The position numbers and the translations under genes are program-made. Below the pieces are notes generated by a model. The model was not told the origin of the DNA. It saw only the letters and a list, made by a program, of their open reading frames with translations, and searched no databases. From the NCBI RefSeq assembly GCF_055900595.2, contig NZ_CM148325.1: DNA of 64,000 nucleotides. One strand, given 5' to 3'. This document shows, piece after piece, positions 1 to 16,008 of the stretch (position 1 is its first letter; each line of letters begins with the position of its first letter).

Positions 1-1271
1 GGGTATAGCCCCAGACCTACCGTCGTATTAATCGCTGCCCCCAGACTTGCACAACCATTAATGGCGTTACGGCGTGCCGGAAGGTTGAACACGTCGGCAA
101 AAATCTGCATAAACAGATCGCTGTTCGAACCGCCGCCAGTAATGATCACATGCTTTGCAAAGTGATTCATTTCATTACACATATTGTCGTAATTGTTCTT
201 CAGCGTCAGCGCCACGCTTTCCAGTATTGAACGATATATCCATGCGTAATCCATGCTGGAATCAAAGCCGATCATAATCCCGCGTTTGTACGGTTCCCAC
301 GGATTGGTCAGCCAGTCCAGCACCGTCATCAGACCATTACAGCCAGGCGGCACACAAGACGCTTTTTTGTTGAGCAAATCTTCCGGTGAAAGATCCTGTG
401 CTTTGGCATCCTGAATTAACGACTCGCCTAACATGTCGCGCAGCCAGCTCACTGTCCACATGCCTTTGCGGATACCGTAACCTTCATACAGCAAGGTTTG
501 CGGAATAGAAGACATAATCGGCCAGTACGCTACCGGATCTTTCGGCAGTACTTTGCCGTTCATCATCAACGCGATGTAAGTGCCAAGAGAAATTACCGCA
601 GTTTCATCATCCAGTAACCCGGCTCCCAGTGCTTCTACCGGTTTATCACTGGTGGTACAAACAACCGGCAGCCCAGCCGGGAAATGTGTCGCCAGCGCGG
701 CTTGTGGTGTGATATGCCCAAGAACAGTGCCCGGCATTTGCACATCAAAAAGCATCTGTCGGGGAATATTAAACTTCTCCATTACCGCGGTATCTTCGCT
801 CCATGCCCAGGTCTTATAATCCACCGGCCACTGACCAAAATAGTTGGCGATATTGTCTTTAAACTCGCCGGTTAAACGGTGTGTCAGATAACCTGAAAAA
901 GAGGTGACATATGCCACATCAGGATTGGTGTGCTCGTAGGGACGTGTTACGCGTGCATCCTGCCAGCTAATCAACGGCGCAGCTGGCGTGCCATCGGCTT
1001 TCAATAACGCACGGCAGCAACGGATAGATCCCAGACCAATGCCGACAATATCTTCTTTATTCCCGGCAAACTGGCTCATCAAATCGTGACCGGCAAAACA
1101 TAATGATGCCCATAAATCGTCGTCAGGATGTTCTGCGGTATCGGCATCTGGCGTGCGCATCGGCTGCAATAAGCCTTTGCCTTCGCATACCACATTACCT
1201 TCCAGATCGTACATCACCACTTTTGTGCTCTGACTTCCGCCATCAATCCCTATGATGTATTTTTTCGACAT
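1..1271 (-). CDS. ygcE: FGGY-family carbohydrate kinase, partial (N-terminal part; 3' end lies beyond window start)
   Basis: Minus-strand translation from ATG at 1271 reads MSKKYIIGIDGGSQSTKVVMYD..., the FGGY kinase N-terminal motif; the frame stays open to position 1. Not in the ORF track because no stop lies in the window. Confidence 0.85.
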   Translation of the reverse strand, partial: MSKKYIIGIDGGSQSTKVVMYDLEGNVVCEGKGLLQPMRTPDADTAEHPDDDLWASLCFAGHDLMSQFAGNKEDIVGIGLGSIRCCRALLKADGTPAAPLISWQDARVTRPYEHTNPDVAYVTSFSGYLTHRLTGEFKDNIANYFGQWPVDYKTWAWSEDTAVMEKFNIPRQMLFDVQMPGTVLGHITPQAALATHFPAGLPVVCTTSDKPVEALGAGLLDDETAVISLGTYIALMMNGKVLPKDPVAYWPIMSSIPQTLLYEGYGIRKGMWTVSWLRDMLGESLIQDAKAQDLSPEDLLNKKASCVPPGCNGLMTVLDWLTNPWEPYKRGIMIGFDSSMDYAWIYRSILESVALTLKNNYDNMCNEMNHFAKHVIITGGGSNSDLFMQIFADVFNLPARRNAINGCASLGAAINTTVGLGLY

Positions 1272-1297
1272 GATTTTTCTCCTGTAATTTTCTGGAC

Positions 1298-2575
1298 TTA
1301 CTTGCTGCTAGCCATTGCGGGGGCGCTATCAGCAGTACGAATTTTTTGGAACAGCAAAAAGGTAAAGACGATCACCATGCCAAGCGCCGCCATGCCCATC
1401 AGCCACATATTGCGGTAGGCTTCTGCCGCGGGCAGGGTGTCTTGCCAGTAGCCGATAATTGGGTAAACGAAGACATCCGGCAGGAATCCAATCACCGAAC
1501 AAATACCTACCGTGGTGCCCATAATGTAAGACGGTGTTCTCGCTTCGCCGGGGCAGGCCCAGTACAGCCCGCGTGAGGCGTAACAGGTGAATCCCAGAAG
1601 TAAAATCAGACCAACCCCCATCGCGACCGATTGCGGGTTAGAGTTCGTGATGAGCAGGGCAGTTAACGCCAGCAGGCCGAGTACGGAAAGGATTTGGATC
1701 ACGCGGGTAGGGGATTTCACTTTGCTGTAGGTGGTGATAATGCCACCAAGTGGGCCGCACAGTGCGCGGAAGATTTTGTTGATCACAATCCCCATGTAGC
1801 TCGCCGCCACCAGCGACATGCCGTACATTTCGGTCAGATAGTTGGTGGAGTAACTCAGAATGGCGTAGATGGTGAAGACGCCAAAAATCACCATGCTGCA
1901 GTACCATGTGGTGCTGATACGCAAAACGGCAAGGATGTCGCTAAGCTGGAATGACTGTTTTTCTTCGGTGTTGGTATTGCGCAGGTTGTTGTTATCGCTA
2001 ACAAAAAACCAGCACAGAATCCCCAACAAGATGTAAACCACACTATAGATGATAATGACCGTTTTCAGGCTGGCGCTGTCATCCGGTGCAAAGCGAGAAA
2101 AGACCCACATGGTAAACACCGCCAGCGACATTACACCGACGCCGCGCAGCCCTTCCATCCAGCCCATAATTTTCCCTTGCTCGCTATGATCGCCAAGCAA
2201 CGATGCGGCTTTAATCGACACCGACCACAGCATTAAAATCGTCGTTATCGCAAAGGCGACCTGAATACAGAGCATTACCCACAGCGGTGGATACGTTGCC
2301 ATTAACAGACCCAGCAATCCGGTAATGATCATCGCGGAAGTAATCATTTTGCGATGCGAAAATTTATCGGCAATAACGCCGCTGGGGGCATAAAGAATAA
2401 TAGCCGCAATACCAAAGGTACTCATTATTAAACCTATCTCGGTATTGCTGAATCCCATAAATTTAGCCATGGGAATTTGATAAATATAACGTAAATAAGC
2501 CAGATCAAAACTAACGCCGCCACTAAAACTAATTATCGCGAGGGTTATCCAACGGCGATATGAGTTGTGTTGCAT
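1298..2575 (-). CDS. yqcE: MFS-family transporter
   Basis: 425-aa ORF, hydrophobic multi-helix protein; position between ygcE and ygcW matches the K-12 gene order. Confidence 0.85.
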   Translation of the reverse strand: MQHNSYRRWITLAIISFSGGVSFDLAYLRYIYQIPMAKFMGFSNTEIGLIMSTFGIAAIILYAPSGVIADKFSHRKMITSAMIITGLLGLLMATYPPLWVMLCIQVAFAITTILMLWSVSIKAASLLGDHSEQGKIMGWMEGLRGVGVMSLAVFTMWVFSRFAPDDSASLKTVIIIYSVVYILLGILCWFFVSDNNNLRNTNTEEKQSFQLSDILAVLRISTTWYCSMVIFGVFTIYAILSYSTNYLTEMYGMSLVAASYMGIVINKIFRALCGPLGGIITTYSKVKSPTRVIQILSVLGLLALTALLITNSNPQSVAMGVGLILLLGFTCYASRGLYWACPGEARTPSYIMGTTVGICSVIGFLPDVFVYPIIGYWQDTLPAAEAYRNMWLMGMAALGMVIVFTFLLFQKIRTADSAPAMASSK

Positions 2576-2753
2576 ATCGTATTCCCATTTGTAATAGACA
2601 AAAAAAAGAGAAAAGTAAGCCGCCCTTTCAGGTGGATTACTTTTCTCAGGTCTCTAGTAATTGCAATAAGAAATAACATGGAAAGCAGTGGTGTTGTGTG
2701 AGAGTAGTCACGCTTCTGCTTTTTAAAATTATTTGATAATACGAATATCACAC

Positions 2754-2769
2754 TGTGATTACGATCACA
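2754..2769. promoter_or_regulatory. Putative CRP site (TGTGA-N6-TCACA) in the yqcE/ygcW divergent region
   Basis: tgtgattacgatcaca matches both CRP half-sites with 6-bp spacing; a TAAAAT -10-like hexamer lies about 22 bp downstream (2791-2796), the geometry of a class II site. Confidence 0.5.
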
Positions 2770-2822
2770 TTAGCGCTTATGCCCTTATGCTAAAAATTAT
2801 CTCCAGTTACCAGAGATAATGA

Positions 2823-2869
2823 GAAAGGTAACTTCCCTCTCGCGGGGGAAGTTACCTTTCTTTTTTTTT
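2823..2869 (+). terminator. Intrinsic-terminator-like hairpin in the ygcW leader (candidate attenuator)
   Basis: Perfect 15-bp inverted repeat gaaaggtaacttccc / gggaagttacctttc (2823-2837 and 2846-2860) followed by nine T residues, ending about 24 bp before the ygcW ATG. An upstream segment agttacc (2805-2811) could pair with ggtaact in the left arm as an alternative structure. Confidence 0.55.
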
Positions 2870-2893
2870 GCCTTACGGAAATTGGAGCTAACT

Positions 2894-3679
2894 ATGTCAA
2901 TCGAATCTCTCAATGCGTTCTCAATGGATTTTTTCTCCCTGAAAGGTAAAACCGCAATTGTTACTGGTGGGAATAGCGGTTTAGGCCAGGCATTTGCCAT
3001 GGCACTGGCAAAAGCAGGCGCAAATATCTTTATTCCTAGTTTCGTTAAAGATAATGGCGAAACAAAGGAAATGATTGAAAAACAGGGGGTTGAGGTGGGC
3101 TTCATGCAGGTGGATATCACCGCAGAAGGCGCGGCGCAGAAGATAATTGCCGCCTGTTGTGAACGTTTCGGCACCGTCGATATTCTGGTTAACAATGCCG
3201 GTATATGTAAGCTGAATAAGGTGCTGGATTTCGGTCGTGCCGACTGGGACCCGATGATTGACGTGAACCTGACCGCCGCATTCGAGTTAAGCTACGAAGC
3301 GGCAAAAATTATGATCCCGCAGAAAAGCGGTAAAATCATTAATATCTGTTCACTGTTTTCCTACTTAGGTGGTCAATGGTCTCCTGCTTATTCTGCCACT
3401 AAACATGCTCTTGCCGGATTCACCAAAGCTTATTGCGATGAACTAGGTCAATATAATATTCAGGTAAATGGTATTGCCCCTGGCTATTATGCAACAGATA
3501 TCACCCTGGCGACACGCAGTAATCCAGAAACTAATCAGCGCGTTCTTGATCATATTCCGGCAAACCGTTGGGGCGATACTCAGGATTTAATGGGCGCAGC
3601 CGTATTCCTCGCAAGTCCGGCTTCAAATTATGTTAACGGGCATTTATTAGTGGTCGATGGCGGTTATTTAGTGCGCTAA
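2894..3679 (+). CDS. ygcW: Short-chain dehydrogenase/reductase (SDR)
   Basis: TGGNSGLG Rossmann motif; start placed at the internal ATG 2894 (ggag SD 8 nt upstream, 261 aa) rather than ORF-track ATG 2819, which would translate the terminator hairpin. Confidence 0.85.
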   Translation: MSIESLNAFSMDFFSLKGKTAIVTGGNSGLGQAFAMALAKAGANIFIPSFVKDNGETKEMIEKQGVEVGFMQVDITAEGAAQKIIAACCERFGTVDILVNNAGICKLNKVLDFGRADWDPMIDVNLTAAFELSYEAAKIMIPQKSGKIINICSLFSYLGGQWSPAYSATKHALAGFTKAYCDELGQYNIQVNGIAPGYYATDITLATRSNPETNQRVLDHIPANRWGDTQDLMGAAVFLASPASNYVNGHLLVVDGGYLVR

Positions 3680-3748
3680 TCCATAACGGTGGTTTCTGTT
3701 TTCTCTTATTAATGATTATTCCATTTTTATTATCAGGAAGGAATTACT

Positions 3749-5203
3749 ATGTCTTTATCTCGCGCAGCGATTGTCGACCAGCTAAAGGAAATTGTTGGTG
3801 CAGATCGCGTAATTACCGATGAAACAGTATTAAAGAAAAACAGTATTGACCGTTTTCGCAAATTTCCGGATATTCATGGCATTTATACTTTGCCGATTCC
3901 GGCAGCGGTCGTAAAACTCGGTTCCACAGAACAAGTATCCCGTGTGCTGAATTTTATGAATGCGCACAAAATTAACGGTGTGCCGCGTACCGGTGCTTCC
4001 GCTACCGAAGGTGGACTGGAAACTGTTGTGGAAAACTCGATAGTGCTTGATGGCTCTGCAATGAATCAAATCATTAATATTGATATAGAGAATATGCAGG
4101 CGACGGCGCAATGTGGCGTTCCGCTGGAAGTGCTGGAAAACGCGTTGCGTGAAAAAGGTTACACCACGGGGCATTCTCCGCAGTCAAAACCGTTGGCGCA
4201 GATGGGGGGACTGGTGGCGACCCGTAGTATCGGGCAGTTCTCCACACTCTACGGCGCAATCGAGGATATGGTCGTTGGCCTGGAAGCAGTACTGGCTGAT
4301 GGCACCGTGACACGCATTAAAAACGTGCCACGACGCGCGGCGGGCCCGGACATTCGTCACATCATCATCGGCAACGAAGGCGCATTGTGCTATATCACTG
4401 AAGTCACTGTGAAAATCTTTAAATTCACCCCGGAAAACAACCTCTTCTACGGTTATATCCTGGAAAACATGAAAACCGGCTTCAACATCCTACGTGAAAT
4501 CATGGTGGAAGGATATCGTCCGTCGATCGCTCGTTTATATGATGCTGAAGATGGCACGCAACACTTCACCCATTTTGCCGACGGTAAATGTGTACTGATC
4601 TTTATGGCTGAAGGTAACCCTCGCATTGCGAAGGCGACGGGCGAAGGGATTGCAGAAATCGTGGCACGTTACCCGCAATGCCAGCGCGTGGACAGTAAGC
4701 TGATCGAAACCTGGTTTAACAACCTGAACTGGGGACCGGATAAAGTGGCTGCCGAACGTGTGCAGATCCTCAAAACCGGCAACATGGGCTTTACCACCGA
4801 AGTGTCCGGCTGCTGGAGTTGTATACACGAAATCTACGAAAGCGTTATTAACCGTATTCGTACCGAGTTCGCGCACGCCGACGACATCACCATGCTGGGC
4901 GGTCACTCCTCTCATAGCTATCAGAACGGCACCAACATGTACTTCGTCTACGACTACAACGTCGTTGACTGTAAGCCGGAAGAGGAAATCGACAAATACC
5001 ACAATCCGCTCAACAAAATCATCTGCGAAGAAACCATTCGCCTCGGCGGTTCGATGGTACACCATCACGGTATCGGTAAACATCGTGTTCACTGGAGCAA
5101 ACTGGAACACGGCAGCGCGTGGACATTGCTGGAAGGGCTGAAAAAACAGTTCGATCCTAACGGCATTATGAATACGGGTACTATCTATCCGATTGAAAAA
5201 TAA
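3749..5203 (+). CDS. ygcU: FAD-linked oxidase (alkyl-DHAP synthase / GlcD-like family)
   Basis: 484-aa ORF; family assignment and position in the ygc cluster are from recollection of the K-12 gene, not from a motif search. Confidence 0.8.
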   Translation: MSLSRAAIVDQLKEIVGADRVITDETVLKKNSIDRFRKFPDIHGIYTLPIPAAVVKLGSTEQVSRVLNFMNAHKINGVPRTGASATEGGLETVVENSIVLDGSAMNQIINIDIENMQATAQCGVPLEVLENALREKGYTTGHSPQSKPLAQMGGLVATRSIGQFSTLYGAIEDMVVGLEAVLADGTVTRIKNVPRRAAGPDIRHIIIGNEGALCYITEVTVKIFKFTPENNLFYGYILENMKTGFNILREIMVEGYRPSIARLYDAEDGTQHFTHFADGKCVLIFMAEGNPRIAKATGEGIAEIVARYPQCQRVDSKLIETWFNNLNWGPDKVAAERVQILKTGNMGFTTEVSGCWSCIHEIYESVINRIRTEFAHADDITMLGGHSSHSYQNGTNMYFVYDYNVVDCKPEEEIDKYHNPLNKIICEETIRLGGSMVHHHGIGKHRVHWSKLEHGSAWTLLEGLKKQFDPNGIMNTGTIYPIEK

Positions 5204-5296
5204 TGTGTCAGGCAGCGTTTCGCGATGACGGGGCGTTGTCTTTTCGGCTTCTCAACAGGGAAGCCGTTCTTATTACCGGACAATGAAGGGGTAAAG

Positions 5297-6634
5297 ATGA
5301 ACACTTCACCGGTGCGAATGGATGATTTACCGCTTAACCGTTTTCACTGTCGAATTGCTGCGCTGACTTTCGGCGCACACCTGACCGACGGTTATGTTCT
5401 CGGCGTCATTGGTTACGCCATAATTCAGCTTACACCCGCCATGCAACTGACGCCGTTTATGGCGGGAATGATCGGCGGCTCGGCGCTACTTGGCCTGTTT
5501 ATCGGCAGCCTGGTTTTGGGCTGGATCTCCGACCATATCGGGCGGCAAAAAATCTTCACCTTCAGCTTTATGCTGATTACACTCGCCTCGTTCCTGCAAT
5601 TTTTTGCCACCACGCCAGAGCATCTTATTGGACTGCGCATTTTGATCGGCATTGGGCTGGGAGGCGATTACTCAGTAGGCCACACCTTGCTGGCTGAATT
5701 TTCTCCGCGCCGCCATCGCGGTATTTTGCTGGGCGCTTTCAGCGTGGTGTGGACCGTAGGTTATGTGTTGGCAAGTCTTGCCGGACATCACTTTATTAGC
5801 GAAAGCCCCGAAGCCTGGCGATGGTTACTTGCATCGGCGGCATTTCCTGCCCTGTTGATTACGTTGTTACGTTGGGGAACGCCAGAATCGCCACGCTGGC
5901 TACTGCGCCAGGGGCGTTTTGCAGAAGCTCACGCTATCGTGCATCGCTATTTTGGTCCCCATGTTTTACTGGGCGATGAAGTGGCAACGGCGACCCATAA
6001 ACACATCAAAACCTTGTTCTCTTCGCGCTACTGGCGGCGCACGGCGTTTAACAGTGTCTTCTTTGTCTGCCTCGTGATCCCGTGGTTTGTGATTTATACC
6101 TGGCTGCCAACTATCGCCCAGACTATTGGACTGGAAGATGCGCTGACTGCCAGCCTGATGCTTAATGCGTTGTTAATTGTGGGCGCGCTGCTGGGATTAT
6201 TTCTGACGCACCTGCTGGCACATCGCAAATTTTTGCTGGGAAGTTTTTTGCTGCTGGCGGCAACGCTGGTAGTGATGGCCTGTTTGCCTTCTGGCAGTTC
6301 ATTAACGCTGCTGCTTTTTGTTCTCTTCAGCACCACCATTTCGGCAGTCAGTAATCTGGTGGGCATTTTGCCTGCGGAAAGTTTTCCTACTGACATTCGC
6401 TCGCTGGGTGTCGGTTTTGCCACTGCCATGAGTCGGTTGGGGGCGGCGGTAAGTACTGGCCTGCTGCCGTGGGTGCTGGCGCAGTGGGGAATGCAAGTCA
6501 CCTTATTGCTCCTGGCGGCAGTGTTGTTGGTTGGTTTTGTTGTGACCTGGCTATGGGCACCAGAAACCAAAGCACTCCCGCTGGTGGCGGCGGGAAATGT
6601 AGGAGGTACGAATGAACATTCTGTTAGCGTTTAA
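5297..6634 (+). CDS. ygcS: MFS-family sugar/metabolite transporter
   Basis: Hydrophobic 445-aa protein from the internal start MNTSPVRMDD; multi-helix transporter pattern. Confidence 0.8.
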   Translation: MNTSPVRMDDLPLNRFHCRIAALTFGAHLTDGYVLGVIGYAIIQLTPAMQLTPFMAGMIGGSALLGLFIGSLVLGWISDHIGRQKIFTFSFMLITLASFLQFFATTPEHLIGLRILIGIGLGGDYSVGHTLLAEFSPRRHRGILLGAFSVVWTVGYVLASLAGHHFISESPEAWRWLLASAAFPALLITLLRWGTPESPRWLLRQGRFAEAHAIVHRYFGPHVLLGDEVATATHKHIKTLFSSRYWRRTAFNSVFFVCLVIPWFVIYTWLPTIAQTIGLEDALTASLMLNALLIVGALLGLFLTHLLAHRKFLLGSFLLLAATLVVMACLPSGSSLTLLLFVLFSTTISAVSNLVGILPAESFPTDIRSLGVGFATAMSRLGAAVSTGLLPWVLAQWGMQVTLLLLAAVLLVGFVVTWLWAPETKALPLVAAGNVGGTNEHSVSV

Positions 6635-7391
6635 AGCCGAACCGGATGCCGGAATGCTGGCGGAAAAAGAGTGGCAGGCAGCGGCTCAGGGTAATAGCGG
6701 ACCGGATGTTTCGCTTCTGCGAAGTTTACTCGGTGCTGATGAACAGGCTGCCGCCGCGCTGCTGTTGGCGCAGAGAAAAAACGGTATGTCGATGTCTTTA
6801 ACCGCGTTGAGCATGGGGGATGAACGGGCGTTGCACTGGCTGCGCTATCTCATGGCTCTTGGGTTTGAGGAAGCTGTATTGCTGGAGACGGCGGCAGATA
6901 TGCGCTTTGCGCCGGAATTTGTCGCTCGCCATATTGCCGAATGGCAGCGCCAGAATCCGCTGGATCTGATCATTACTGGCTGCCAGAGCAGCGAAGGGCA
7001 GAACGGGCAAACGCCATTTTTGCTGGCGGAAATGCTGACCTGGCCCTGCTTTACCCAGGTGGAGCGTTTTACTCTCGACGCACCGTTTATCTCGCTCGAA
7101 CAGCGTACTGAACATGGATTACGCTGTTGTCGGGTTCGCTTGCCTGCGGTGATTGCCGTGCGCCAGTGTGGCGAGGTGGCCTTGCCAGTACCGGGAATGC
7201 GCCAGCGAATGGCTGCGGGGAAAGCTGAAATTATCCGCAAAACTGTTACTGCTGAATCGCCAGCGATGCAGTGCCGGCAACTGGAAAGGCCAGAGCAACG
7301 ACGCGGTGCAACGCTTCTTGATGGGCCAACGGTAGCAGAAAAAGCGCAAAAACTGTGGCGGGATTATTTGTGCCAGAGGATGCAGCCATGA
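6612..7391 (+). CDS. ygcR: Electron-transfer flavoprotein beta-subunit-like protein
   Basis: 259-aa ORF translationally overlapping the next gene; ETF-beta family assignment and cluster position from recollection of K-12. Confidence 0.85.
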   Translation: MNILLAFKAEPDAGMLAEKEWQAAAQGNSGPDVSLLRSLLGADEQAAAALLLAQRKNGMSMSLTALSMGDERALHWLRYLMALGFEEAVLLETAADMRFAPEFVARHIAEWQRQNPLDLIITGCQSSEGQNGQTPFLLAEMLTWPCFTQVERFTLDAPFISLEQRTEHGLRCCRVRLPAVIAVRQCGEVALPVPGMRQRMAAGKAEIIRKTVTAESPAMQCRQLERPEQRRGATLLDGPTVAEKAQKLWRDYLCQRMQP

Positions 7392-8248
7392 ATATCGCAA
7401 TTGTGACAATAAATCAGGACCATGCCGCAATAGCGAGCTGGCTGGCGGAGCAGGATTTCAGCGGCAGCACATTAACGCACTGGCAAATCGAGCCGCAGCC
7501 GATGGTCGCGGAACAGGTGCTGGATGCGCTGGTAGAACAGTGGCAGCGAACGCCTGCGGACGTTGTTCTCTTTCCGCCGGGAACGTTTGGCGATGAACTG
7601 GCTACCCGCCTGTCCTGGCGTTTACATGGTGCCAGTATATGCCAGGTGACTTCATTAAATATTCCAACCGGAAGCGTACGCAAATCCCACTGGGGAAATG
7701 CGCTAACGGCGACGCTGCAAACAGAAAAACGCCCGCTATGCCTTTCCCTTGCCCGCCAGGCGGGAGCAGTGAAAAATGCCACGTTGCCCTCTGGTATGCA
7801 GCAACTGAACATTGTCCCCGGCGCGCTTCCCGACTGGCTGGTTAGCACAGAGGATCTGAAAAATGTTACCCGTGACCCATTAGCTGAGGCCAGACGGGTG
7901 CTGGTGGTGGGGCAGGGCGGAGAGGCAGATAACCAGGAAATCGCTATGCTGGCAGAAAAGCTGGGAGCCGAAGTGGGCTACAGTCGGGCGCGAGTAATGA
8001 ACGGTGGCGTTGATGCCGAAAAAGTGATTGGTATTTCCGGACATCTGCTGGCACCTGAGGTGTGTATTGTTGTTGGCGCTTCCGGCGCAGCAGCGTTAAT
8101 GGCGGGCGTCCGCAATAGCAAGTTTGTGGTGGCGATTAATCATGACGCCAGCGCGGCGGTATTTTCACAGGCAGATGTTGGCGTGGTTGATGACTGGAAA
8201 GCGGTGCTGGAGGCACTGGTGACAACCATTCACGCAGATTGCCAATAA
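7388..8248 (+). CDS. ygcQ: Electron-transfer flavoprotein alpha-subunit-like protein
   Basis: 286 aa from the internal start MNIAIVTINQ; ETF-alpha family assignment from recollection; overlaps the ygcR stop. Confidence 0.85.
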   Translation: MNIAIVTINQDHAAIASWLAEQDFSGSTLTHWQIEPQPMVAEQVLDALVEQWQRTPADVVLFPPGTFGDELATRLSWRLHGASICQVTSLNIPTGSVRKSHWGNALTATLQTEKRPLCLSLARQAGAVKNATLPSGMQQLNIVPGALPDWLVSTEDLKNVTRDPLAEARRVLVVGQGGEADNQEIAMLAEKLGAEVGYSRARVMNGGVDAEKVIGISGHLLAPEVCIVVGASGAAALMAGVRNSKFVVAINHDASAAVFSQADVGVVDDWKAVLEALVTTIHADCQ

Positions 8249-8253
8249 CGTGC

Positions 8254-8360
8254 TGCCGGATGATCCTGCCTACGGTTCTGGGCTGGGGACTTGTAAGCCT
8301 GATAAGACGCGTCAAGCGTCGTATCAGGCGCTGAATGTCGGATGTGGCGTGCAGCCTACA
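8254..8360. repeat. REP/BIME-type extragenic palindromic repeats
   Basis: gcctgataagacgcgtcaagcgtcgtatcaggcg and flanking ccggatg / ctacgg motifs between convergent ygcQ and ygcP. Confidence 0.5.
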
Positions 8361-8394
8361 AATCACACAAATTCAATTCGTTACGATTATCTCG

Positions 8395-8970
8395 TCAAAG
8401 CAATTTTTTCGCTAACGTCCAGACCCCGGTATTCGTGGTAGAAAGCGCCACTACACCGGCGTTAATCGCATTACGCGCATCTTCTTCATCGCACACCAGC
8501 CCGCCAGCAACCAGCGGCTGGTGGATTTTCTCCGTTACCCAGCCCAGTACTTTAGGCATACAGCCTGGCAGAATTTCAATACAATCCGGGTTCGATTGCG
8601 CAACCTGTTTATCAATGTTGTGAAATGAAATCGAATCAACAATAAACAAGCGATGAATACAGAAAAAGCCTTCCGCTCTCGCCGCTTTTAGCATTGACGC
8701 TTTGGTACTGATAATGCCGTCCGCCTCGGTCACCAGTTTCAGAAACTGAATTACTACTTCTTTATTTGACGCGCCTTCCAGCAAATCGACATGAATAAAA
8801 GCATATTTTCCGGCGTTCTTAATCTTTTTGACGATATGACTGATGGTGCAAATATTGCCGTACAACACGGAAATAAACCGGCATTCAGAGTCGATTGCCA
8901 GTTGCAGGCTGGCATTGTCTTTAACGGCAGCAATCACCGGATTCTGGCGGAGCAGGTGTAAGAGGGGCAT
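8395..8970 (-). CDS. ygcP: GlpP-family (glycerol-3-phosphate-responsive type) transcription antiterminator
   Basis: 191-aa ORF; GlpP-family assignment from recollection of the K-12 ygcP annotation. Confidence 0.8.
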   Translation of the reverse strand: MPLLHLLRQNPVIAAVKDNASLQLAIDSECRFISVLYGNICTISHIVKKIKNAGKYAFIHVDLLEGASNKEVVIQFLKLVTEADGIISTKASMLKAARAEGFFCIHRLFIVDSISFHNIDKQVAQSNPDCIEILPGCMPKVLGWVTEKIHQPLVAGGLVCDEEDARNAINAGVVALSTTNTGVWTLAKKLL

Positions 8971-8986
8971 AAATTATCCTTATTAT

Positions 8987-9247
8987 TTATCCAAAGCGGT
9001 AGGTGATGCCGAATCCGGAAGGCGGATAGCGCCACTGTTGTAGGGTTTTTTCATCACACAGTAAACGGCAGGTGCCACACTCCAGGCAGCCGCGATAATC
9101 AACGCGTAAGTCGCCTTCCGGCGTGAGCGAAAAAAGACCAGCCGGACAAGCGTTAATCAACCGTTCTGCCGTCTGGCGCTCAACGGAGTCTGCCGGAACA
9201 ATATGTGGCGCATCAGCAGCGCGCCAGAGATTACGGGCTACAGACAT
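8987..9247 (-). CDS. ygcO: FixX-like ferredoxin-like protein
   Basis: Cys-rich small protein (CLECGTCRLLCDE); 86 aa from the internal start; overlaps the ygcN stop. Confidence 0.75.
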   Translation of the reverse strand: MSVARNLWRAADAPHIVPADSVERQTAERLINACPAGLFSLTPEGDLRVDYRGCLECGTCRLLCDEKTLQQWRYPPSGFGITYRFG

Positions 9248-10509
9248 CGAATACTCCTGACAACATCGCCCGCCAGATGCCACAGGCCATGACGACGTAA
9301 ATGACGCCAGAGCAACTGGCGCAGCGGCGGAACAGGTTTATCACCTTGATCCCATAAATCACGGGAAATATCCTGCATTAACGCAGGCCACGCCCGATAC
9401 CAGCCAGGGCGTTGCAAAAGCGCCGGAACATGCTGATAACGCTGTAGAACATCCCACAACAGGCTGCGCTCTACGTTGTAATGATAAAGCGGAAACAGAT
9501 TTTGCAGCTCGCGGTGCTGGCAGGCGCTTATCAGCGTTTGTGCCGCCGCCTGCGCGCCAGTCAGCGCCATATCCATGCCGCGCACGGAAATTCCGGTATT
9601 GACGCAACTGCGTAACGTATCGCCCACCAGCAGCCAGCCGTTACCGCCATATTGCACCGGCATACTGTGCAAGCCACCTTCTGGCACCAGATGCGCACCA
9701 TACTCCAGTGATTCCGTGTTTTTGATAAGCGGGCGCACTGCCGGATGCGTTTTAAAGCGAGCCAGCAGCTCGCTTGCCGGAACACGACTTTGCGTAAGTG
9801 AAGAGAGCGGGCAAACAATCCCTAACGAGAGCGTTTGTTGATTAGTATAAAGAAATGCGCCGCCGGGTAAGTCATCACAGATTCCGCCGCTGAACAGCAA
9901 CGCTGCGCCTTCGTTATTCTCCAGATGAAAACGTTCTTCAATAGCGGATGTTTCCAGTGAAAGAACTTCTTTGATCCCCAACGCCATCACTTCGCCAGCA
10001 GGACGAGTCACTAACCCGTGACGCTCAGCCAGGACGCTGTTGGCACCTTCTGCCAGCACCACATAACGGGCGCGGAGAATATCGTCACCACAAATAACGC
10101 CGCAAACTCTGCCGTTTTCTTCATACAGTGCATCCACCGTCGCACCAGGGATGCATTCGACACCTTCTTTTTCGGCTTCGGCAACCAGCCACGGATCGAA
10201 CCGTGCACGTAATACGCTCCAGGATTCACCGCCGGGCTGTAAGCTGGAAAACGTCGTTGCGCCATCCGGCGTTAGCAGAGAAAGACTTTCGTGAGTGATG
10301 CGTCGTTCAAGAGGCGCGGTCAGGTGAAACTGAGGGAGGAGTTCCGCGAGCGCATGGGTGTATAAACGCCCGCCGGAAAGGTTTTTACTGCCGGGAATTT
10401 CAGCGCGTTCCAGTAACAGAACGGATAAACCTGCCCGCGCGCAGCGTAAAGCACAAGCGGTGCCTGCTATACCCGCACCAATAATAATAATGTCGCAGTC
10501 GTCTTCCAT
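9238..10509 (-). CDS. ygcN: FixC-like FAD-dependent oxidoreductase (ETF-quinone oxidoreductase family)
   Basis: DIIIIGAGIAG FAD-binding motif near the N-terminus; 423 aa from the internal start MEDDCDIIIIG. Confidence 0.85.
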   Translation of the reverse strand: MEDDCDIIIIGAGIAGTACALRCARAGLSVLLLERAEIPGSKNLSGGRLYTHALAELLPQFHLTAPLERRITHESLSLLTPDGATTFSSLQPGGESWSVLRARFDPWLVAEAEKEGVECIPGATVDALYEENGRVCGVICGDDILRARYVVLAEGANSVLAERHGLVTRPAGEVMALGIKEVLSLETSAIEERFHLENNEGAALLFSGGICDDLPGGAFLYTNQQTLSLGIVCPLSSLTQSRVPASELLARFKTHPAVRPLIKNTESLEYGAHLVPEGGLHSMPVQYGGNGWLLVGDTLRSCVNTGISVRGMDMALTGAQAAAQTLISACQHRELQNLFPLYHYNVERSLLWDVLQRYQHVPALLQRPGWYRAWPALMQDISRDLWDQGDKPVPPLRQLLWRHLRRHGLWHLAGDVVRSIRCL

Positions 10510-10586
10510 GTCATGCCCCAGATATCCAGAGCGCAACACCCTAACATAGCGTTACTTAAGGGAAATTGACCGCCGACACACTCTTA

Positions 10587-10952
10587 TCATTCGCCGCGAT
10601 AGATACAACCTGCGGTGCAGGTTTCTTTTACCATCACCGCACTTAACAGCGGCACAACGGGTTTAACCTGATCCCAAATCCATTTTGCTAAAACTTCGCT
10701 GGTTGGGTTTTCCAGACCTGGAATATCATTGAGATAATGGTGATCGAGGCGCTCATAAGTTGGCTTAAACGCTGCTTTCAGTTCAGCGAAATCGATAATC
10801 CAGCCCGTATGCGGATCGACTTCCCCGGTAATTTCCAGTCGCACCATAAAGGAATGCCCGTGCAGGCGACCACATTTATGTCCTTCCGGGACGTGTGGTA
10901 AGCGGTGAGCGGCTTCGAAGGTGAAATCTTTAAATAACGTGGTGGACATCAT
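10587..10952 (-). CDS. queD: 6-carboxy-5,6,7,8-tetrahydropterin synthase (queuosine biosynthesis)
   Basis: 121 aa from [33 protein letters not shown], the QueD/PTPS motif; the ORF-track start lies 28 codons upstream. Confidence 0.9.
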
Positions 10953-11267
10953 AATTTCTCTACATGACGATAAAACCGCCGTAGAGTACCGGAAAGGCTG
11001 TTTTTTCGCATTATCTAAAACGACTTTGTTGCGCAAAATCGCTGATTTATCTTAATGATTGGCTAAATTCATTTGTTTTTCATTGGGTTGGTTAATCTGT
11101 TTTGTTGTTAAAGACTATTGCTAAAACAGGTTAGTCGATTTGGTTATTAGTTATCGCTATCCCGTCTTTAATCCACACCGTTCACCCCGTTAACCTTACC
11201 TTCTCTTCTGTTTTATGGGCGCTGACAGGGCGCAGAAACAGCTTTGCTTACTGGAACATAACGACGC

Positions 11268-13073
11268 ATGACGACACAGGTCCCACCTTCCGCGTTGCTT
11301 CCGTTGAACCCGGAGCAACTGGCACGCCTTCAGGCGGCCACGACCGATTTAACTCCCACCCAGCTTGCCTGGGTTTCTGGCTATTTCTGGGGCGTGCTCA
11401 ACCAACAGCCTGCTGCGCTTACAGCGACGCCAGCGCCCGCCCCCGCCGCAGAAATGCCGGGTATAACTATTATCTCCGCTTCGCAAACCGGCAATGCGCG
11501 CCGGGTTGCTGAAACATTACGCGATGATTTATTAGCGGCAAAACTGAACGTTAAGCTGGTGAACGCGGGCGACTATAAATTCAAACAAATCGCCAGCGAA
11601 AAACTGCTCATCGTGGTGACGTCAACGCAAGGTGAAGGGGAACCGCCGGAAGAAGCCGTCGCGCTGCATAAGTTCCTGTTCTCCAAAAAAGCGCCAAAGC
11701 TGGAAAACACTGCATTTGCCGTGTTTAGCCTCGGCGATAGCTCTTATGAATTTTTCTGCCAGTCCGGGAAAGATTTTGACAGCAAGCTGGCGGAACTGGG
11801 CGGTGAACGCCTGCTCGACCGTGTCGATGCCGACGTTGAATACCAGGCTGCTGCCATCGAGTGGCGCGCCCGCGTGGTTGATGTTCTGAAGTCCCGTACG
11901 CCTGTCGCGGCACCTTCGCAATCCGTCGCTACTGGCGCGGTAAATGAAATCCACACCAGCCCGTACAGCAAAGACGCGCCGCTGGTGGCGAGCCTCTCTG
12001 TTAACCAGAAAATTACCGGGCGTAACTCTGAAAAAGACGTTCGCCATATCGAAATTGACTTAGGTGACTCGGGCCTGCGTTACCAGCCGGGTGACGCGCT
12101 GGGCGTCTGGTATCAGAACGATCCGGCACTGGTGAAAGAACTTGTCGAACTGCTGTGGCTGAAAGGCGATGAACCTGTCACCGTCGAGGGCAAAACGTTA
12201 CCTCTGAACGAGGCCCTACAGTGGCACTTCGAACTGACCGTCAACACCGCCAACATCGTTGAGAACTACGCCACGCTTACCCGCAGTGAAACGCTGCTGC
12301 CGCTGGTGGGCGATAAAGCGAAGTTACAGCATTACGCCGCGACGACGCCGATTGTCGATATGGTGCGTTTCTCTCCGGCACAGCTTGACGCTGAAGCCCT
12401 CATTAACTTGCTGCGCCCGCTGACGCCGCGCCTGTATTCCATCGCCTCCTCGCAGGCGGAAGTCGAGAACGAAGTACACGTCACCGTTGGTGTCGTTCGT
12501 TATGACATTGAAGGCCGCGCCCGTGCCGGTGGTGCCTCCAGCTTCCTTGCGGATCGTGTGGAAGAAGAGGGCGAAGTCCGCGTCTTTATCGAACATAACG
12601 ATAACTTCCGCCTGCCCGCTAACCCGGAAACGCCGGTGATTATGATTGGTCCAGGCACCGGCATCGCGCCGTTCCGCGCCTTTATGCAGCAACGTGCTGC
12701 TGACGAAGCGCCGGGCAAAAACTGGCTGTTCTTTGGCAATCCGCACTTTACGGAAGATTTCCTCTACCAGGTGGAGTGGCAGCGCTACGTCAAAGAGGGC
12801 GTGCTGACACGTATTGATCTTGCCTGGTCGCGCGATCAAAAAGAAAAAGTTTACGTACAAGACAAACTGCGCGAACAGGGCGCAGAGCTGTGGCGCTGGA
12901 TCAATGACGGTGCCCACATTTATGTCTGCGGCGACGCTAATCGCATGGCGAAAGACGTTGAACAGGCACTTCTGGAAGTGATTGCCGAATTTGGTGGCAT
13001 GGACACCGAAGCGGCGGATGAATTTTTAAGTGAGCTGCGCGTAGAGCGCCGTTATCAGCGAGATGTCTACTAA
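11268..13073 (+). CDS. cysJ: Sulfite reductase [NADPH] flavoprotein alpha subunit
   Basis: [24 protein letters not shown]... flavodoxin plus FAD/NADPH domains; cysJIH order. Confidence 0.95.
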
Positions 13074-14785
13074 TGAACGAAAAACATCCAGGGCCTTTAG
13101 TGGTCGAAGGAAAACTGACAGACGCGGAGCGCATGAAGCTTGAGAGCAACTACCTGCGCGGGACCATTGCGGAAGATTTAAACGACGGTCTGACCGGCGG
13201 CTTTAAGGGCGACAACTTCCTGCTGATCCGTTTCCACGGTATGTATCAGCAGGATGACCGCGATATCCGCGCGGAACGTGCTGAACAGAAGCTGGAACCG
13301 CGTCATGCGATGCTGCTGCGCTGCCGTCTGCCGGGTGGGGTGATCACCACTAAACAGTGGCAGGCAATTGATAAATTCGCCGGTGAAAACACCATTTATG
13401 GCAGCATTCGCCTGACCAACCGCCAGACGTTCCAGTTCCACGGCATTCTGAAAAAGAACGTCAAACCGGTGCACCAGATGCTGCATTCGGTCGGTCTTGA
13501 TGCGCTGGCGACCGCCAACGACATGAACCGTAACGTGTTGTGCACCTCGAACCCGTACGAGTCGCAACTGCACGCAGAAGCGTATGAGTGGGCGAAGAAA
13601 ATCTCTGAACATCTGCTGCCGCGTACCCGCGCCTACGCGGAGATCTGGCTCGATCAGGAGAAAGTCGCCACCACCGATGAAGAACCGATCCTCGGTCAGA
13701 CCTACCTGCCGCGTAAATTCAAAACCACGGTAGTGATCCCACCGCAGAACGATATCGATCTGCACGCCAACGACATGAACTTTGTGGCGATCGCGGAAAA
13801 CGGCAAGCTGGTGGGCTTCAACCTGCTGGTGGGCGGTGGGCTTTCTATCGAACACGGCAACAAGAAAACCTACGCCCGCACGGCGAGCGAGTTTGGCTAT
13901 CTGCCACTGGAGCATACGCTGGCGGTGGCGGAAGCGGTCGTTACCACTCAGCGTGACTGGGGTAATCGTACTGACCGTAAAAACGCCAAAACCAAATACA
14001 CGCTGGAGCGCGTGGGTGTTGAGACGTTTAAAGCAGAAGTGGAACGTCGCGCGGGGATCAAATTTGAGCCGATCCGTCCTTATGAATTTACCGGACGCGG
14101 CGATCGTATCGGCTGGGTAAAAGGGATCGACGACAAATGGCACCTGACGCTGTTTATCGAAAATGGCCGAATTCTTGATTATCCGGGGCGTCCGCTGAAA
14201 ACCGGCCTGCTGGAGATCGCAAAGATCCACAGAGGTGATTTCCGCATTACGGCGAACCAGAATCTGATCATCGCTGGTGTACCGGAAAGCGAGAAAGCGA
14301 AGATTGAGAAGATCGCCAAAGAGAGCGGATTGATGAATGCCGTCACGCCGCAGCGCGAAAACTCAATGGCCTGCGTGTCATTCCCGACTTGCCCGTTGGC
14401 GATGGCGGAAGCGGAGCGTTTCCTGCCGTCGTTTATCGATAACATCGATAATTTAATGGCGAAACATGGTGTCAGCGATGAGCACATCGTGATGCGTGTA
14501 ACAGGCTGCCCGAACGGTTGTGGTCGCGCGATGCTGGCGGAAGTTGGCCTGGTGGGTAAAGCGCCTGGGCGCTACAACCTGCATCTTGGTGGCAACCGCA
14601 TTGGGACACGTATCCCACGGATGCATAAAGAAAACATCACCGAGCCGGAAATCCTGGCGACGCTTGATGAACTGATAGGGCGCTGGGTGAAAGAACGTGA
14701 AGCGGGTGAAGGCTTCGGCGACTTTACGGTGCGTGCGGGCATCATTCGCCCGGTGCTCGATCCGGCGCGCGATTTGTGGGATTAA
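13073..14785 (+). CDS. cysI: Sulfite reductase hemoprotein beta subunit
   Basis: 570 aa; start overlaps the cysJ stop. Confidence 0.95.
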
Positions 14786-14801
14786 CCATCAGTCCAGTCT
14801 T

Positions 14802-14838
14802 GTAGGCCTGATAAGACGCGTAAGCGTCGCATCAGGCA
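14802..14838. repeat. REP element between cysI and cysH
   Basis: gtaggcctgataagacgcgtaagcgtcgcatcaggca palindromic unit. Confidence 0.5.
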
Positions 14839-14858
14839 AGGCAAACAGTGAGGAATCT

Positions 14859-15593
14859 ATGTCCAAACTCGATCTAAATGCCCTGAACGAACTGCCGAAG
14901 GTAGATCGCATTCTGGCGCTGGCGGAAACTAACGCCGAGCTTGAAAAACTGGATGCTGAAGGCCGCGTTGCCTGGGCGCTGGATAATCTGCCCGGTGAAT
15001 ATGTACTTTCTTCCAGCTTTGGCATTCAGGCGGCGGTGAGCCTGCATCTGGTGAATCAGATTCGCCCGGATATTCCGGTGATCCTCACCGATACCGGTTA
15101 TCTGTTCCCGGAAACCTACCGCTTTATTGACGAGTTAACGGACAAACTCAAGCTCAACCTGAAAGTGTACCGCGCTACCGAAAGCGCCGCCTGGCAGGAA
15201 GCACGCTACGGCAAACTGTGGGAACAGGGCGTTGAAGGCATTGAAAAGTACAACGATATCAACAAAGTCGAACCGATGAACCGGGCGCTGAAAGAACTAA
15301 ACGCGCAAACGTGGTTTGCTGGCCTGCGCCGTGAACAATCCGGCAGCCGCGCTAATTTACCGGTGCTGGCAATTCAGCGTGGCGTATTTAAGGTGCTGCC
15401 CATTATTGACTGGGATAATCGGACGATATATCAGTATCTGCAAAAACATGGCCTGAAATATCATCCATTATGGGACGAAGGATATTTATCGGTCGGTGAT
15501 ACCCATACAACCCGTAAATGGGAACCTGGTATGGCGGAAGAAGAAACGCGTTTCTTTGGCTTAAAAAGGGAATGTGGGCTGCACGAAGGGTAA
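14859..15593 (+). CDS. cysH: Phosphoadenosine phosphosulfate (PAPS) reductase
   Basis: 244 aa from [32 protein letters not shown]; the ORF-track start at 14697 overlaps cysI and the REP. Confidence 0.95.
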
Positions 15594-15855: not shown

Positions 15856-16008
15856 ATGCTGACAAAATATGCCCTTGTGGCAATCATCGTACTGTGTTGT
15901 ACAGTACTGGGATTCACGCTGATGGTAGGCGACTCGTTGTGTGAGTTGAGTATCAGAGAACGTGGTATGGAGTTTAAGGCAGTTCTCGCTTACGAATCGA
16001 AGAAGTAG
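15856..16008 (+). CDS. hokX: Hok/Gef-family type I toxin (50 aa, small membrane peptide)
   Basis: [50 protein letters not shown]: Hok-like hydrophobic helix, conserved Cys and AYES tail; AGGGAGG SD 6 nt upstream; stable 3' hairpin acgcggggg...ccccgcgt after the stop. Symbol is from recollection of a sokX/hokX locus at this position in K-12. Confidence 0.7.

Follow-up and report, generated by a model that had tools for sequence, protein, structure and literature searches.

Leader elements and the GlpP-family protein YgcP in a putative antitermination-controlled catabolic regulon of Escherichia coli

We analyzed a 64,000-nucleotide stretch of DNA (contig NZ_CM148325.1 of assembly GCF_055900595.2; hereafter the window) that carries the Escherichia coli ygc genes at positions 2894-10509. 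The two divergent operons of this locus, the ygcW operon and yqcE-ygcE, are each preceded by a ~65-nt leader element that can form two mutually exclusive RNA helices, and every locus in which we found a homologue of ygcP, a gene for a GlpP-family protein, also contains this element. The reading that we favor, to which we give a probability of about 0.6, is that the locus is a catabolic regulon switched by the cAMP receptor protein (CRP) and by YgcP acting as an antiterminator, in which the short-chain dehydrogenase/reductase (SDR) YgcW, the kinase YgcE and the flavoenzyme YgcU would together free dihydroxyacetone phosphate (DHAP) from a 1-substituted, glycerol-like compound. The ygc genes themselves are already known and have long been annotated; what appears to be new is the leader element with its two helices, its strict association with YgcP-type proteins in several phyla, the redefined core of the system and the link to quaternary amines. 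The ten genes fall in that part of the K-12 genome which is still uncharacterised, and practically all E. coli possess them.

Two leader elements with mutually exclusive helices

The intergenic region between yqcE and ygcW measures 318 bp and contains, between the two divergent leaders, a perfect consensus palindrome for CRP (TGTGAttacgaTCACA, 2754-2769), which is the same in K-12. This site was a top-ranked one in an earlier prediction (PMC1794230), and yqcE-ygcE is among the entries listed as Crp-activated (PMC8085971). The leader of the ygcW operon (copy 1; 2803-2869, + strand) scored 73 bits (E = 1.1e-11) with R1, the covariance model of the element. It comprises an AGUUACC box (2805-2811), a perfect 19-bp terminator stem flagged by the terminator scan (2821-2862), within which lies the alternative partner of the box, GGUAACU (2827-2833), and a U9 tract (2863-2871); the stem ends 32 nt upstream of the ygcW ATG, and the predicted fold has an energy of -42.4 kcal/mol (z = -5.9). 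The leader of yqcE-ygcE (copy 2; 2601-2664, - strand; 50.8 bits, E = 4.8e-7) has an AAUUACU box (2662-2656), a terminator stem (2647-2608) and a U8 tract (2607-2600), and ends ~25 nt upstream of the yqcE ATG; its 5' arm (GAGAAAAGUAAU) resembles that of copy 1 (GAGAAAGGUAAC). R1 found exactly these two copies in the window, and matched the position and strand of copy 2 in nearly all enterobacterial loci. Because neither hairpin has a gene upstream on its own strand, they are leader terminators and not operon-end terminators. Copy 1 is 100% identical to its K-12 counterpart, with the neighboring genes 4-7% different, and keeps an identity of at least 99% in 4185 E. coli genomes; it is unannotated in RefSeq. 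The longest ygcW open reading frame (ORF) begins with the ATG at 2819, which lies within the leader terminator, and its 'FFFF' codons are the U tract. This extension is an artefact, by which automated ORF callers could over-extend ygcW by 25 codons.

Species-representative genomes were scanned for the ygcU locus; of the matches, which numbered at least 559, 80 loci were retrieved. Upstream of the ygcW homologues of Enterobacterales, Halobacillus, Thalassobacillus, Geosporobacter, Dethiosulfatibacter, Syntrophomonadaceae and Sporomusa, the element has the consensus AGUUACY-AGAG-(3-5 nt)-GAGAAARGUAACUUCC...GGAAG..GCUUUUCUC-U7-9, and in Clostridia a second copy lies upstream of ygcU. Compensatory changes are present in 9 of the 18 pairs of the terminator helix. 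The alternative helix, formed by the 5' AGUUACY box with the RGUAACU of the terminator 5' arm, is 99.3% paired, with compensatory changes in 3 of its 7 pairs; no column shuffle reached the observed value, and pairing dropped to 17-56% in shifted registers. Among 107 distinct instances the 5 central pairs are pairable in all, one pair being G-C in 71 and A-U in 36, and another U-A in 81 and C-G in 20. The element is a terminator/antiterminator arrangement with two mutually exclusive helices. It belongs to no curated Rfam family, an E-value-mode scan of positions 2400-3100 having given only sub-threshold chance matches (SurA small RNA, for instance, with 23.8 bits where the gathering score is 100), and a full-text literature search for the motif returned unrelated primers only. 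Weak R1 matches (34-38 bits) were also seen in two high-GC actinomycete loci from Saccharopolyspora, upstream of the ygcU homologue by ~0.9 kb in L083 and by 2.2 kb in L084; ygcP was not seen in the fetched stretch of either, and the matches may be chance or a diverged form of the element.

YgcP matches PF04309 (G3P_antiterm) over 173 of 173 model positions (6e-62), and its matches in the PDB are GlpP structures (3kts, 1.2e-28; 1vkf, 8.4e-15). The YgcP-like proteins form a subfamily of their own, identity between the E. coli protein and those of Clostridia, Vibrio and Photobacterium being 54% or higher. A ygcP homologue is accompanied by the element in 54 of 54 loci, from Enterobacterales to Bacillota, and no locus (0) has ygcP with the element absent. 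Neither was present in the fetched stretch of 23 loci, for example in Desulfobacula, where a GntR-family gene lies beside the SDR gene; the 6 loci with the element and no ygcP in the fetched stretch are truncated contigs or belong to species with ygcP elsewhere. On the basis of family membership and this perfect co-occurrence, YgcP is our candidate for the switching protein: the leader element most likely responds to it, and the comparative evidence makes YgcP-dependent attenuation at both leaders quite likely. R1 found no element upstream of the ygcNOP unit, suggesting that YgcP is not under its own control.

Conservation of the core and its company outside enterics

The ORFs of ygcW, ygcU, ygcS, ygcR and ygcQ (+ strand) and of ygcN, ygcO and ygcP (- strand) are all present (8/8) and uninterrupted, and positions 2894 and 10509 correspond exactly to the start codons of ygcW and ygcN. 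A preliminary description of this DNA had listed these eight genes in two convergent transcription units. Its gene content and identities are borne out by the RefSeq annotation of an E. coli chromosome with 99.6% identity (L001), which agrees with all gene coordinates, and by NCBIfam, Pfam and PDB matches; the two convergent units are indeed present, among three units in all, the third being the yqcE-ygcE operon, which lies upstream of and diverges from the ygcW operon. For the GlpP-like antiterminator with which that description credited the cluster, there is now a candidate RNA target before both divergent operons. The term island, in contrast, has to be abandoned. Positions 2500-11000 of the window were matched in 5425 of 5426 complete E. 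coli genomes, on the chromosome every time, and in 5086 of the 5426 a single stretch spans at least 80% of the region. In Klebsiella, Citrobacter, Enterobacter and their relatives, the locus likewise has queD/cysJ on one side and queE on the other, and its GC content (0.43-0.57) is unremarkable. This distribution, synteny and composition rule out a genomic island, and the signs of purifying selection given below likewise speak against the term.

The coding DNA of the region differs from that of K-12 by 3-8%. The flanking genes cysI (93.7% DNA identity to K-12) and cysJ (95.7%) are as divergent as the ygc genes, so the divergence is regional and not ygc-specific, which excludes a hypervariability peculiar to the ygc locus. 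Over positions 2500-11000, an identity of at least 99% was found in only 8 of the 5425 genomes, with 4323 in the 90-95% band; the region at positions 1-15000, beside the CRISPR/cas neighborhood, seems to exist as deeply diverged alleles. Amino-acid identity to K-12 is 99.0% for YgcU, 98.9% for YgcW, 97.9% for YgcP, 96.7% for YgcN, 95.5% for YgcQ, 94.3% for YgcO and 93.1% for YgcR. The ratio of 5 amino-acid changes per 64 nucleotide changes in YgcU points to purifying selection; the ratio in YgcR is 18 per 56. Judged from these substitutions, the core enzymes are under strong purifying selection and the electron-transfer module, consisting of the electron-transfer flavoprotein (ETF) and Fix-like proteins, is under weaker constraint. 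The products of ygcR, ygcQ, ygcO and ygcN change several-fold faster within E. coli than those of ygcW, ygcU and ygcP.

The core kept between phyla consists of ygcW, ygcU, ygcE and ygcP. The YgcU of E. coli is 65-75% identical to those of Bacillota, Desulfobacterota, SAR324 and Actinomycetota (mean column identity 82%), the YgcW homologues are 65-86% identical between phyla and nearly always adjoin ygcU, and ygcE is found alongside ygcU in 69 of 84 loci. Three Bacillaceae have a minimal module, ygcP / element-ygcW-ygcE-ygcU followed by a gene for a betaine/choline/carnitine transporter (BCCT), with unrelated genes on both sides. ETF genes directly follow ygcU in most lineages and are missing from one Erwinia/Pantoea/Serratia group, Halobacillus, Thalassobacillus and SAR324; the loci without ETF are L033, 35, 38, 39, 42, 44-48, 49, 71, 72 and 75. 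FixC and FixX homologues occur at these loci in Enterobacterales only. ETF and FixCX are an accessory, not an obligatory part of the system. The genome-context comparison that the preliminary description had suggested thus confirmed synteny in enterics and showed the conserved heart of the system to be ygcW-ygcU-ygcE-ygcP, not the ETF and FixCX genes; this ETF/FixCX part, which the Erwinia/Pantoea/Serratia and Halobacillus versions lack, evolves fastest within E. coli.

Outside enterics the element precedes BCCT transporter genes (L003, L059, L065, L068, L069 and L073), an OpuC-type ATP-binding cassette (ABC) system (L079) and an operon for an MttB-family methyltransferase (L081). Near ygcU, BCCT genes were found in 12 loci and MttB homologues in 6, and MttB homologues anywhere in the fetched stretch in 8. 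These identities are backed by precomputed Pfam matches and by NCBIfam, which gave a betaine-type BCCT, an OsmF-like binding protein and the MttB superfamily, the last under the trimethylamine cut-off; the linkage of BCCT, OpuC-type and MttB genes to the orthologous module was seen in Bacillota, SAR324 and Desulfobacterota. Quaternary-amine transport and demethylation share this regulon outside enterics. Because the same element precedes these genes in other phyla, the comparison makes a glycerol-like compound with a quaternary ammonium group a better candidate than a plain polyol or sugar acid. For the non-enteric systems we lean toward a substrate that carries a quaternary amine; for E. coli, where the argument would run by analogy, we hold such a substrate only tentatively and at less than even odds. 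The non-pyrrolysine MttB systems for glycine betaine, proline betaine, carnitine and gamma-butyrobetaine offer a parallel, the ygcW-ygcU-ygcE (W-U-E) module of anaerobes being co-located with MttB, corrinoid/pterin-binding proteins and BCCT/Opu transporters, partly also in co-regulation; none of these MttB-system genes is in the E. coli locus.

Some of these loci carry additional genes. In L003, L059, L065, L066, L068, L069 and L073 a GlcD-type flavin adenine dinucleotide (FAD) oxidase with an EHG motif follows the ETF genes, downstream of ygcU, and several anaerobe loci also have a second ETF beta/alpha pair, which suggests an extra ETF-coupled oxidation step in anaerobes that is not in E. 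coli. In L081 and L076/L078 a homologue of PanB, the 3-methyl-2-oxobutanoate hydroxymethyltransferase, scores over the NCBIfam cut-off and sits between the MttB and OpuC-type transporter genes, behind the leader element; it is an odd companion for a corrinoid methyltransferase.

Proposed mechanism and competing explanations

In Bacillus subtilis, GlpP with glycerol-3-phosphate activates glpD, glpFK and glpTQ, each with a promoter followed by a GlpP site and a terminator in the 5' untranslated region (UTR) (PMC9604022). The ygc system has in common with it the regulator family (PF04309), the promoter, short conserved 5' box and intrinsic terminator in the 5' UTR, and the catabolic and transport operons, including an FGGY kinase, as targets. 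Canonical glpP-glpF-glpK-glpD loci from Priestia and Lysinibacillus were used for comparison; their leaders start with AAGUU(A/C)AUA, followed by the terminator, and on visual inspection this start resembles the AGUUACY box. In contrast, the ygc leader is a distinct sequence class, complementarity between box and terminator arm was not evident in the four canonical leaders read, and YgcP is distant from the canonical proteins (pairwise E = 1.2e-28 to the Listeria GlpP structure 3kts). The genes behind the ygc-type leaders encode an SDR, a flavoenzyme resembling alkyl-DHAP synthase (AGPS), a kinase and betaine-type or MFS (major facilitator superfamily) transporters, not glpF/K/D, and the ygc type is found in Gammaproteobacteria as well as in Bacillota.

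In the mechanism that we propose, cAMP-CRP would switch on two divergent promoters located between yqcE and ygcW; should transcription begin where the elements do, at their 5' ends, the spacing would put the center of the CRP site at about -41.5 relative to ygcW and about -92.5 relative to yqcE. The default state would be off, the ~65-nt leader forming a strong intrinsic terminator that ends transcription before the first gene. Since the terminator (-24 to -31 kcal/mol) dominates the alternative helix of 7 bp, a protein would be required for the on state. By analogy with glycerol-3-phosphate, YgcP would bind a phosphorylated pathway intermediate produced by the kinase YgcE, and the liganded protein would bind the leader and promote the AGUUACY x RGUAACU helix, allowing RNA polymerase to read through.

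YgcU matches PF01565 (FAD_binding_4, 7e-36) and PF02913 (FAD-oxidase_C, 8.4e-19). Its best match in the PDB is AGPS (4bby, 8e-41), followed by glycolate oxidase and LctD (7qh2_C, 1.7e-22). Residues R262, S388, Y398 and H438-440 of YgcU align with R419, T568, Y578 and H615-617 of AGPS (4bby), and the residues at these positions are invariant in 15 sequences from several phyla; the motif is HHH, as against the EHG of GlcD/lactate dehydrogenase (LDH)-type dehydrogenases that is present in the second oxidase of the anaerobes. YgcU thus shares with AGPS (4bby, 2uuu) the two-domain FAD fold, the HHH loop and the residues at R419/T568/Y578, and the 1-substituted DHAP predicted for the ygc pathway would belong to the AGPS substrate class. 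It differs from AGPS in that ~190 N-terminal residues are missing, in its place in a putatively inducible catabolic operon, often by ETF genes, which suggests net electron transfer, and in that nothing points to a long-chain lipid substrate. With 484 aa, and an alignment that begins at AGPS residue ~193-215, YgcU is not a full-length ether-lipid AGPS, which has the N-terminal domain and ~580-660 aa. By analogy with AGPS, the reaction of YgcU may be a cleavage or substitution at C1 of an intermediate that resembles DHAP, instead of a simple dehydrogenation.

The nearest relatives of YgcW oxidize the penultimate secondary alcohol beside a primary alcohol, and those of YgcE are ketose kinases. 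These relatives, the AGPS residues of YgcU and the three-enzyme minimal module lead us to the simplest scheme, X-CH2-CHOH-CH2OH -> X-CH2-CO-CH2-O-phosphate -> DHAP (or oxidised equivalent) + X. After uptake of the 1-substituted glycerol-like compound, its secondary alcohol would be oxidized to a ketone, the free primary alcohol would be phosphorylated to give a 1-substituted DHAP, and YgcU would strip off the C1 substituent, leaving DHAP or an oxidized equivalent. X is probably a group containing a quaternary ammonium or betaine, and electrons, if released, would flow in E. coli from YgcRQ (ETF) through YgcNO to quinone. That YgcW, YgcE and YgcU act on a single small substrate and yield a triose-level product has, in our estimate, an even chance. 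A bolder version, which we think improbable, is that the three enzymes represent an undescribed route for splitting the non-hydrolysable bond that joins glycerol to a betaine head group, in a regulon whose switch would be a GlpP-family riboregulator of a new class that senses the phosphorylated intermediate. The 1-substituted DHAP would then come from the kinase and SDR, YgcU would perform an ether or C-N cleavage in the catabolic direction, and the products would be DHAP and free betaine, which the anaerobes would go on to demethylate with MttB enzymes. Candidate substrates for such a route may be deacylated betaine lipids (glyceryl-trimethylhomoserine), glyceryl ethers or a 2,3-dihydroxypropyl quaternary amine; it is doubtful that a deacylated betaine lipid in particular is the substrate, and a literature search on betaine-lipid catabolism returned no bacterial pathway for comparison.

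The fixABCX/caiTABCDE and ydiQRST genes of E. coli are comparable in having paralogous sets of ETF beta/alpha, FixC and FixX, and the ETF/Fix set of the fix/cai system serves to metabolize a quaternary amine that a BCCT transporter brings in. YgcRQ and YgcNO score far under the Fix equivalog cut-offs and are therefore paralogues, not Fix proteins. Also unlike fix/cai, the ygc locus has no CoA-transferase or acyl-CoA dehydrogenase genes, and its control would be by an antiterminator instead of CaiF.

The preliminary description had read the locus as a self-contained pathway for a polyol or sugar acid. An ordinary pathway of this sort, similar to erythritol or glycerol catabolism, would combine MFS uptake, phosphorylation by YgcE and oxidation by YgcW and ETF-linked YgcU. 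It would fit the closeness of YgcW to KduD and gluconate 5-dehydrogenase and of YgcE to xylulokinase, the weak likeness of YqcE to galactonate and phosphoglycerate transporters, the match of YgcS to sugar-porter models, the ETF and FixCX genes adjoining the core in E. coli, and a CRP control typical for carbon-source operons. The underlying logic of transporter, kinase and flavoenzyme is upheld, and the statement that the substrate had not been established agrees with the searchable literature, which defines none. However, the orthologous module is tied to BCCT, OpuC-type and MttB genes, behind the same element where ygcP is present, and three enzymes would not suffice to channel a C4-C6 polyol into central metabolism unless an aldolase or isomerase were added, so that a polyol or sugar acid is unlikely, and less likely than a quaternary-ammonium or betaine compound. 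As for the flavin-dependent oxidation of that description, the flavoenzyme stands, but a simple dehydrogenation by YgcU is doubtful, given the HHH of AGPS in place of the EHG of the GlcD/LDH type, and an AGPS-like cleavage or substitution at C1 may apply. The same motif bears on another explanation, in which YgcU-YgcRQ would be a 2-hydroxyacid dehydrogenase-ETF complex of the lactate/glycolate type, linked to quinone by YgcNO, with the kinase and SDR catalyzing an unrelated side reaction. The model here is LctBCD of Acetobacterium woodii, where a GlcD-superfamily flavoenzyme gene lies beside etfB-etfA; YgcU does match glycolate oxidase and LctD of the Ldh-EtfAB complex (7qh2_C, 1.7e-22), and ETF genes come directly after ygcU in most loci. 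Yet AGPS is the far better match (8e-41) and the AGPS-aligned residues are invariant, many lineages with ygcW, ygcU, ygcE and ygcP are without ETF, and ygcW and ygcE are tied to ygcU much more tightly. The second GlcD-type oxidase of the anaerobes, which has the EHG, lies beside ETF and is closer to LctD, would be the more natural ETF partner. We consider an LctBCD-like complex very unlikely.

We give even less credence to the idea that the E. coli cluster is a cryptic or decaying remnant, its hairpins ordinary terminators or repetitive extragenic palindromic (REP)-like sequences and YgcP an enzyme-like, non-regulatory TIM (triosephosphate isomerase) barrel. The lack of a phenotype or inducer in the searchable literature, the truncated YgcU variants of some genomes, the fast evolution of the ETF genes in E. 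coli (93-95% amino-acid identity to K-12) and the want of a recognized RNA-binding domain in GlpP-family proteins would agree with it. The genes, though, are intact both here and in K-12, selection on the core appears to be strongly purifying, and 5086 of 5426 genomes contain one stretch that spans 80% or more of the region. Nor would a remnant explain hairpins whose primary sequence is kept between phyla, which covary in two mutually exclusive helices and co-occur with ygcP, and which have no upstream gene on the same strand to terminate.

Several points weigh against the favored reading of a CRP- and YgcP-switched regulon that frees DHAP. The class II (ygcW) and class I (yqcE) geometry of the CRP site is a spacing fit only. 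An antiterminator helix of 7 bp needs a protein to prevail against a terminator of -24 to -31 kcal/mol, and the GlpP TIM-barrel family has, to our knowledge, neither a defined RNA-binding surface nor a recognized RNA-binding domain. On the canonical glpD/glpF leaders R1 matched in the right place and weakly, with 16.3 and 9.2 bits compared to 50-89 on ygc-type leaders, too little for a claim of homology between the two kinds of RNA site. The catalytic roles given here to the AGPS-aligned residues, presumably those described in structural work on AGPS, are putative, a literature search for the names of AGPS catalytic residues having returned nothing; moreover, dedicated ETF genes point to a net oxidation, whereas AGPS chemistry is redox-neutral. 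Finally, the quaternary-amine link is drawn from non-enteric loci, and in E. coli the cluster encodes two MFS transporters and lacks BCCT, Opu and MttB genes altogether, so that the enteric substrate could differ.

A search of the literature for the ten gene names gave list mentions only, and no substrate, inducer or phenotype is defined in what was searchable. The mentions include CRP-site prediction, Crp-activation tables, an H2O2 overexpression screen, an aid to nicotinamide mononucleotide (NMN) production by YgcS overexpression, a ygcU deletion without effect on D-serine signalling, and ygcE as a neutral integration site or CRISPR-flanking marker; the single mention of ygcO is a typo for ycgO. 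We know of no publication elsewhere that gives a substrate, inducer or phenotype for these genes. What is gained here is two defined leader RNAs with a candidate partner in YgcP, and a chemical search narrowed to glycerol-like quaternary-ammonium or betaine compounds. If the favored reading is true, E. coli would have a protein-dependent, GlpP-type attenuator of transcription, as far as we know the first such antitermination system described in this species, the alkyl-DHAP synthase fold would gain a catabolic role, and betaine compounds, plentiful in marine and host-associated habitats, would be linked in their turnover to a regulon that several hundred bacterial species or more possess.

Genes of the locus and neighboring features

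Family assignments were checked with NCBIfam for all ten proteins, with Pfam for YgcP, YgcU, YgcR and YgcQ, and by sequence matches to the PDB for YgcP and YgcU. Every NCBIfam match was under its curated cut-off, and hence none of the proteins is an equivalog of a characterized enzyme; in K-12 all the genes are intact and labelled "putative". On the - strand, ygcE (1-1271, with the start codon at 1271 and the 3' end beyond the start of the window) encodes an FGGY-family kinase according to the L001 annotation, its nearest NCBIfam families being xylulokinase and AI-2 kinase, both under the cut-off. The first gene of that operon, yqcE (1298-2575, - strand), encodes an MFS transporter whose weak similarity to galactonate and phosphoglycerate transporters comes from NCBIfam. 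On the + strand, ygcW (2894-3679) encodes an SDR oxidoreductase similar to KduD and gluconate 5-dehydrogenase. YgcW scored 350.9 bits against NF005390 (cut-off 369) and 277 against a second KduD-type model (cut-off 338.85), so that neither equivalog cut-off for KduD, the 2-dehydro-3-deoxy-D-gluconate 5-dehydrogenase, was reached. It is followed by ygcU (3749-5203, +), for the FAD-linked enzyme of the alkyl-DHAP synthase type (PF01565 and PF02913), and by ygcS (5225-6634, +), for an MFS transporter (L001 annotation and NCBIfam) that resembles aromatic-acid, organic-cation and NiaP-type carriers and also matched sugar-porter models. The likeness of YgcS to such MFS carriers is also found in PMC8601175. 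The genes ygcR (6612-7391, +; PF01012, 3.8e-15) and ygcQ (7388-8248, +; PF00766, 2.3e-17) encode divergent ETF beta and alpha subunits.

The convergent unit on the - strand consists of ygcN (9238-10509), for a FixC-like FAD oxidoreductase and putative ETF:quinone oxidoreductase (NF007450, 7e-113, and FixC, 3e-108, both under the cut-off), ygcO (8987-9247), for a FixX-like ferredoxin (NF011993, 1.8e-23, under the cut-off), and ygcP (8395-8970), for the GlpP-family, proposed RNA-binding antiterminator (PF04309, 6e-62). In the L001 annotation, queD and cysJIH lie beyond ygcN.

The start of ygcS is ambiguous: it is placed at 5225 (469 aa) in RefSeq for the near-identical strain and 72 nt downstream, at 5297 (445 aa), in K-12. 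If the later start is correct, a GC-rich hairpin at 5245-5266 falls in the gap between ygcU and ygcS; its site corresponds to where Clostridia bear the second leader element before ygcU. Between the convergent genes ygcQ and ygcP, at 8290-8335, there is a REP-like imperfect palindrome (GCCTGATAAGACGCG...CGTCGTATCAGGC), and the terminator scan flagged no canonical hairpin-plus-T-run terminator in this gap. Downstream of cysH, the L001 annotation places a hok/gef-family toxin gene at ~15856-16008 and, from ~16201, the transposase of the IS4-like insertion sequence IS421; in K-12 the type I-E cas genes lie at this position.

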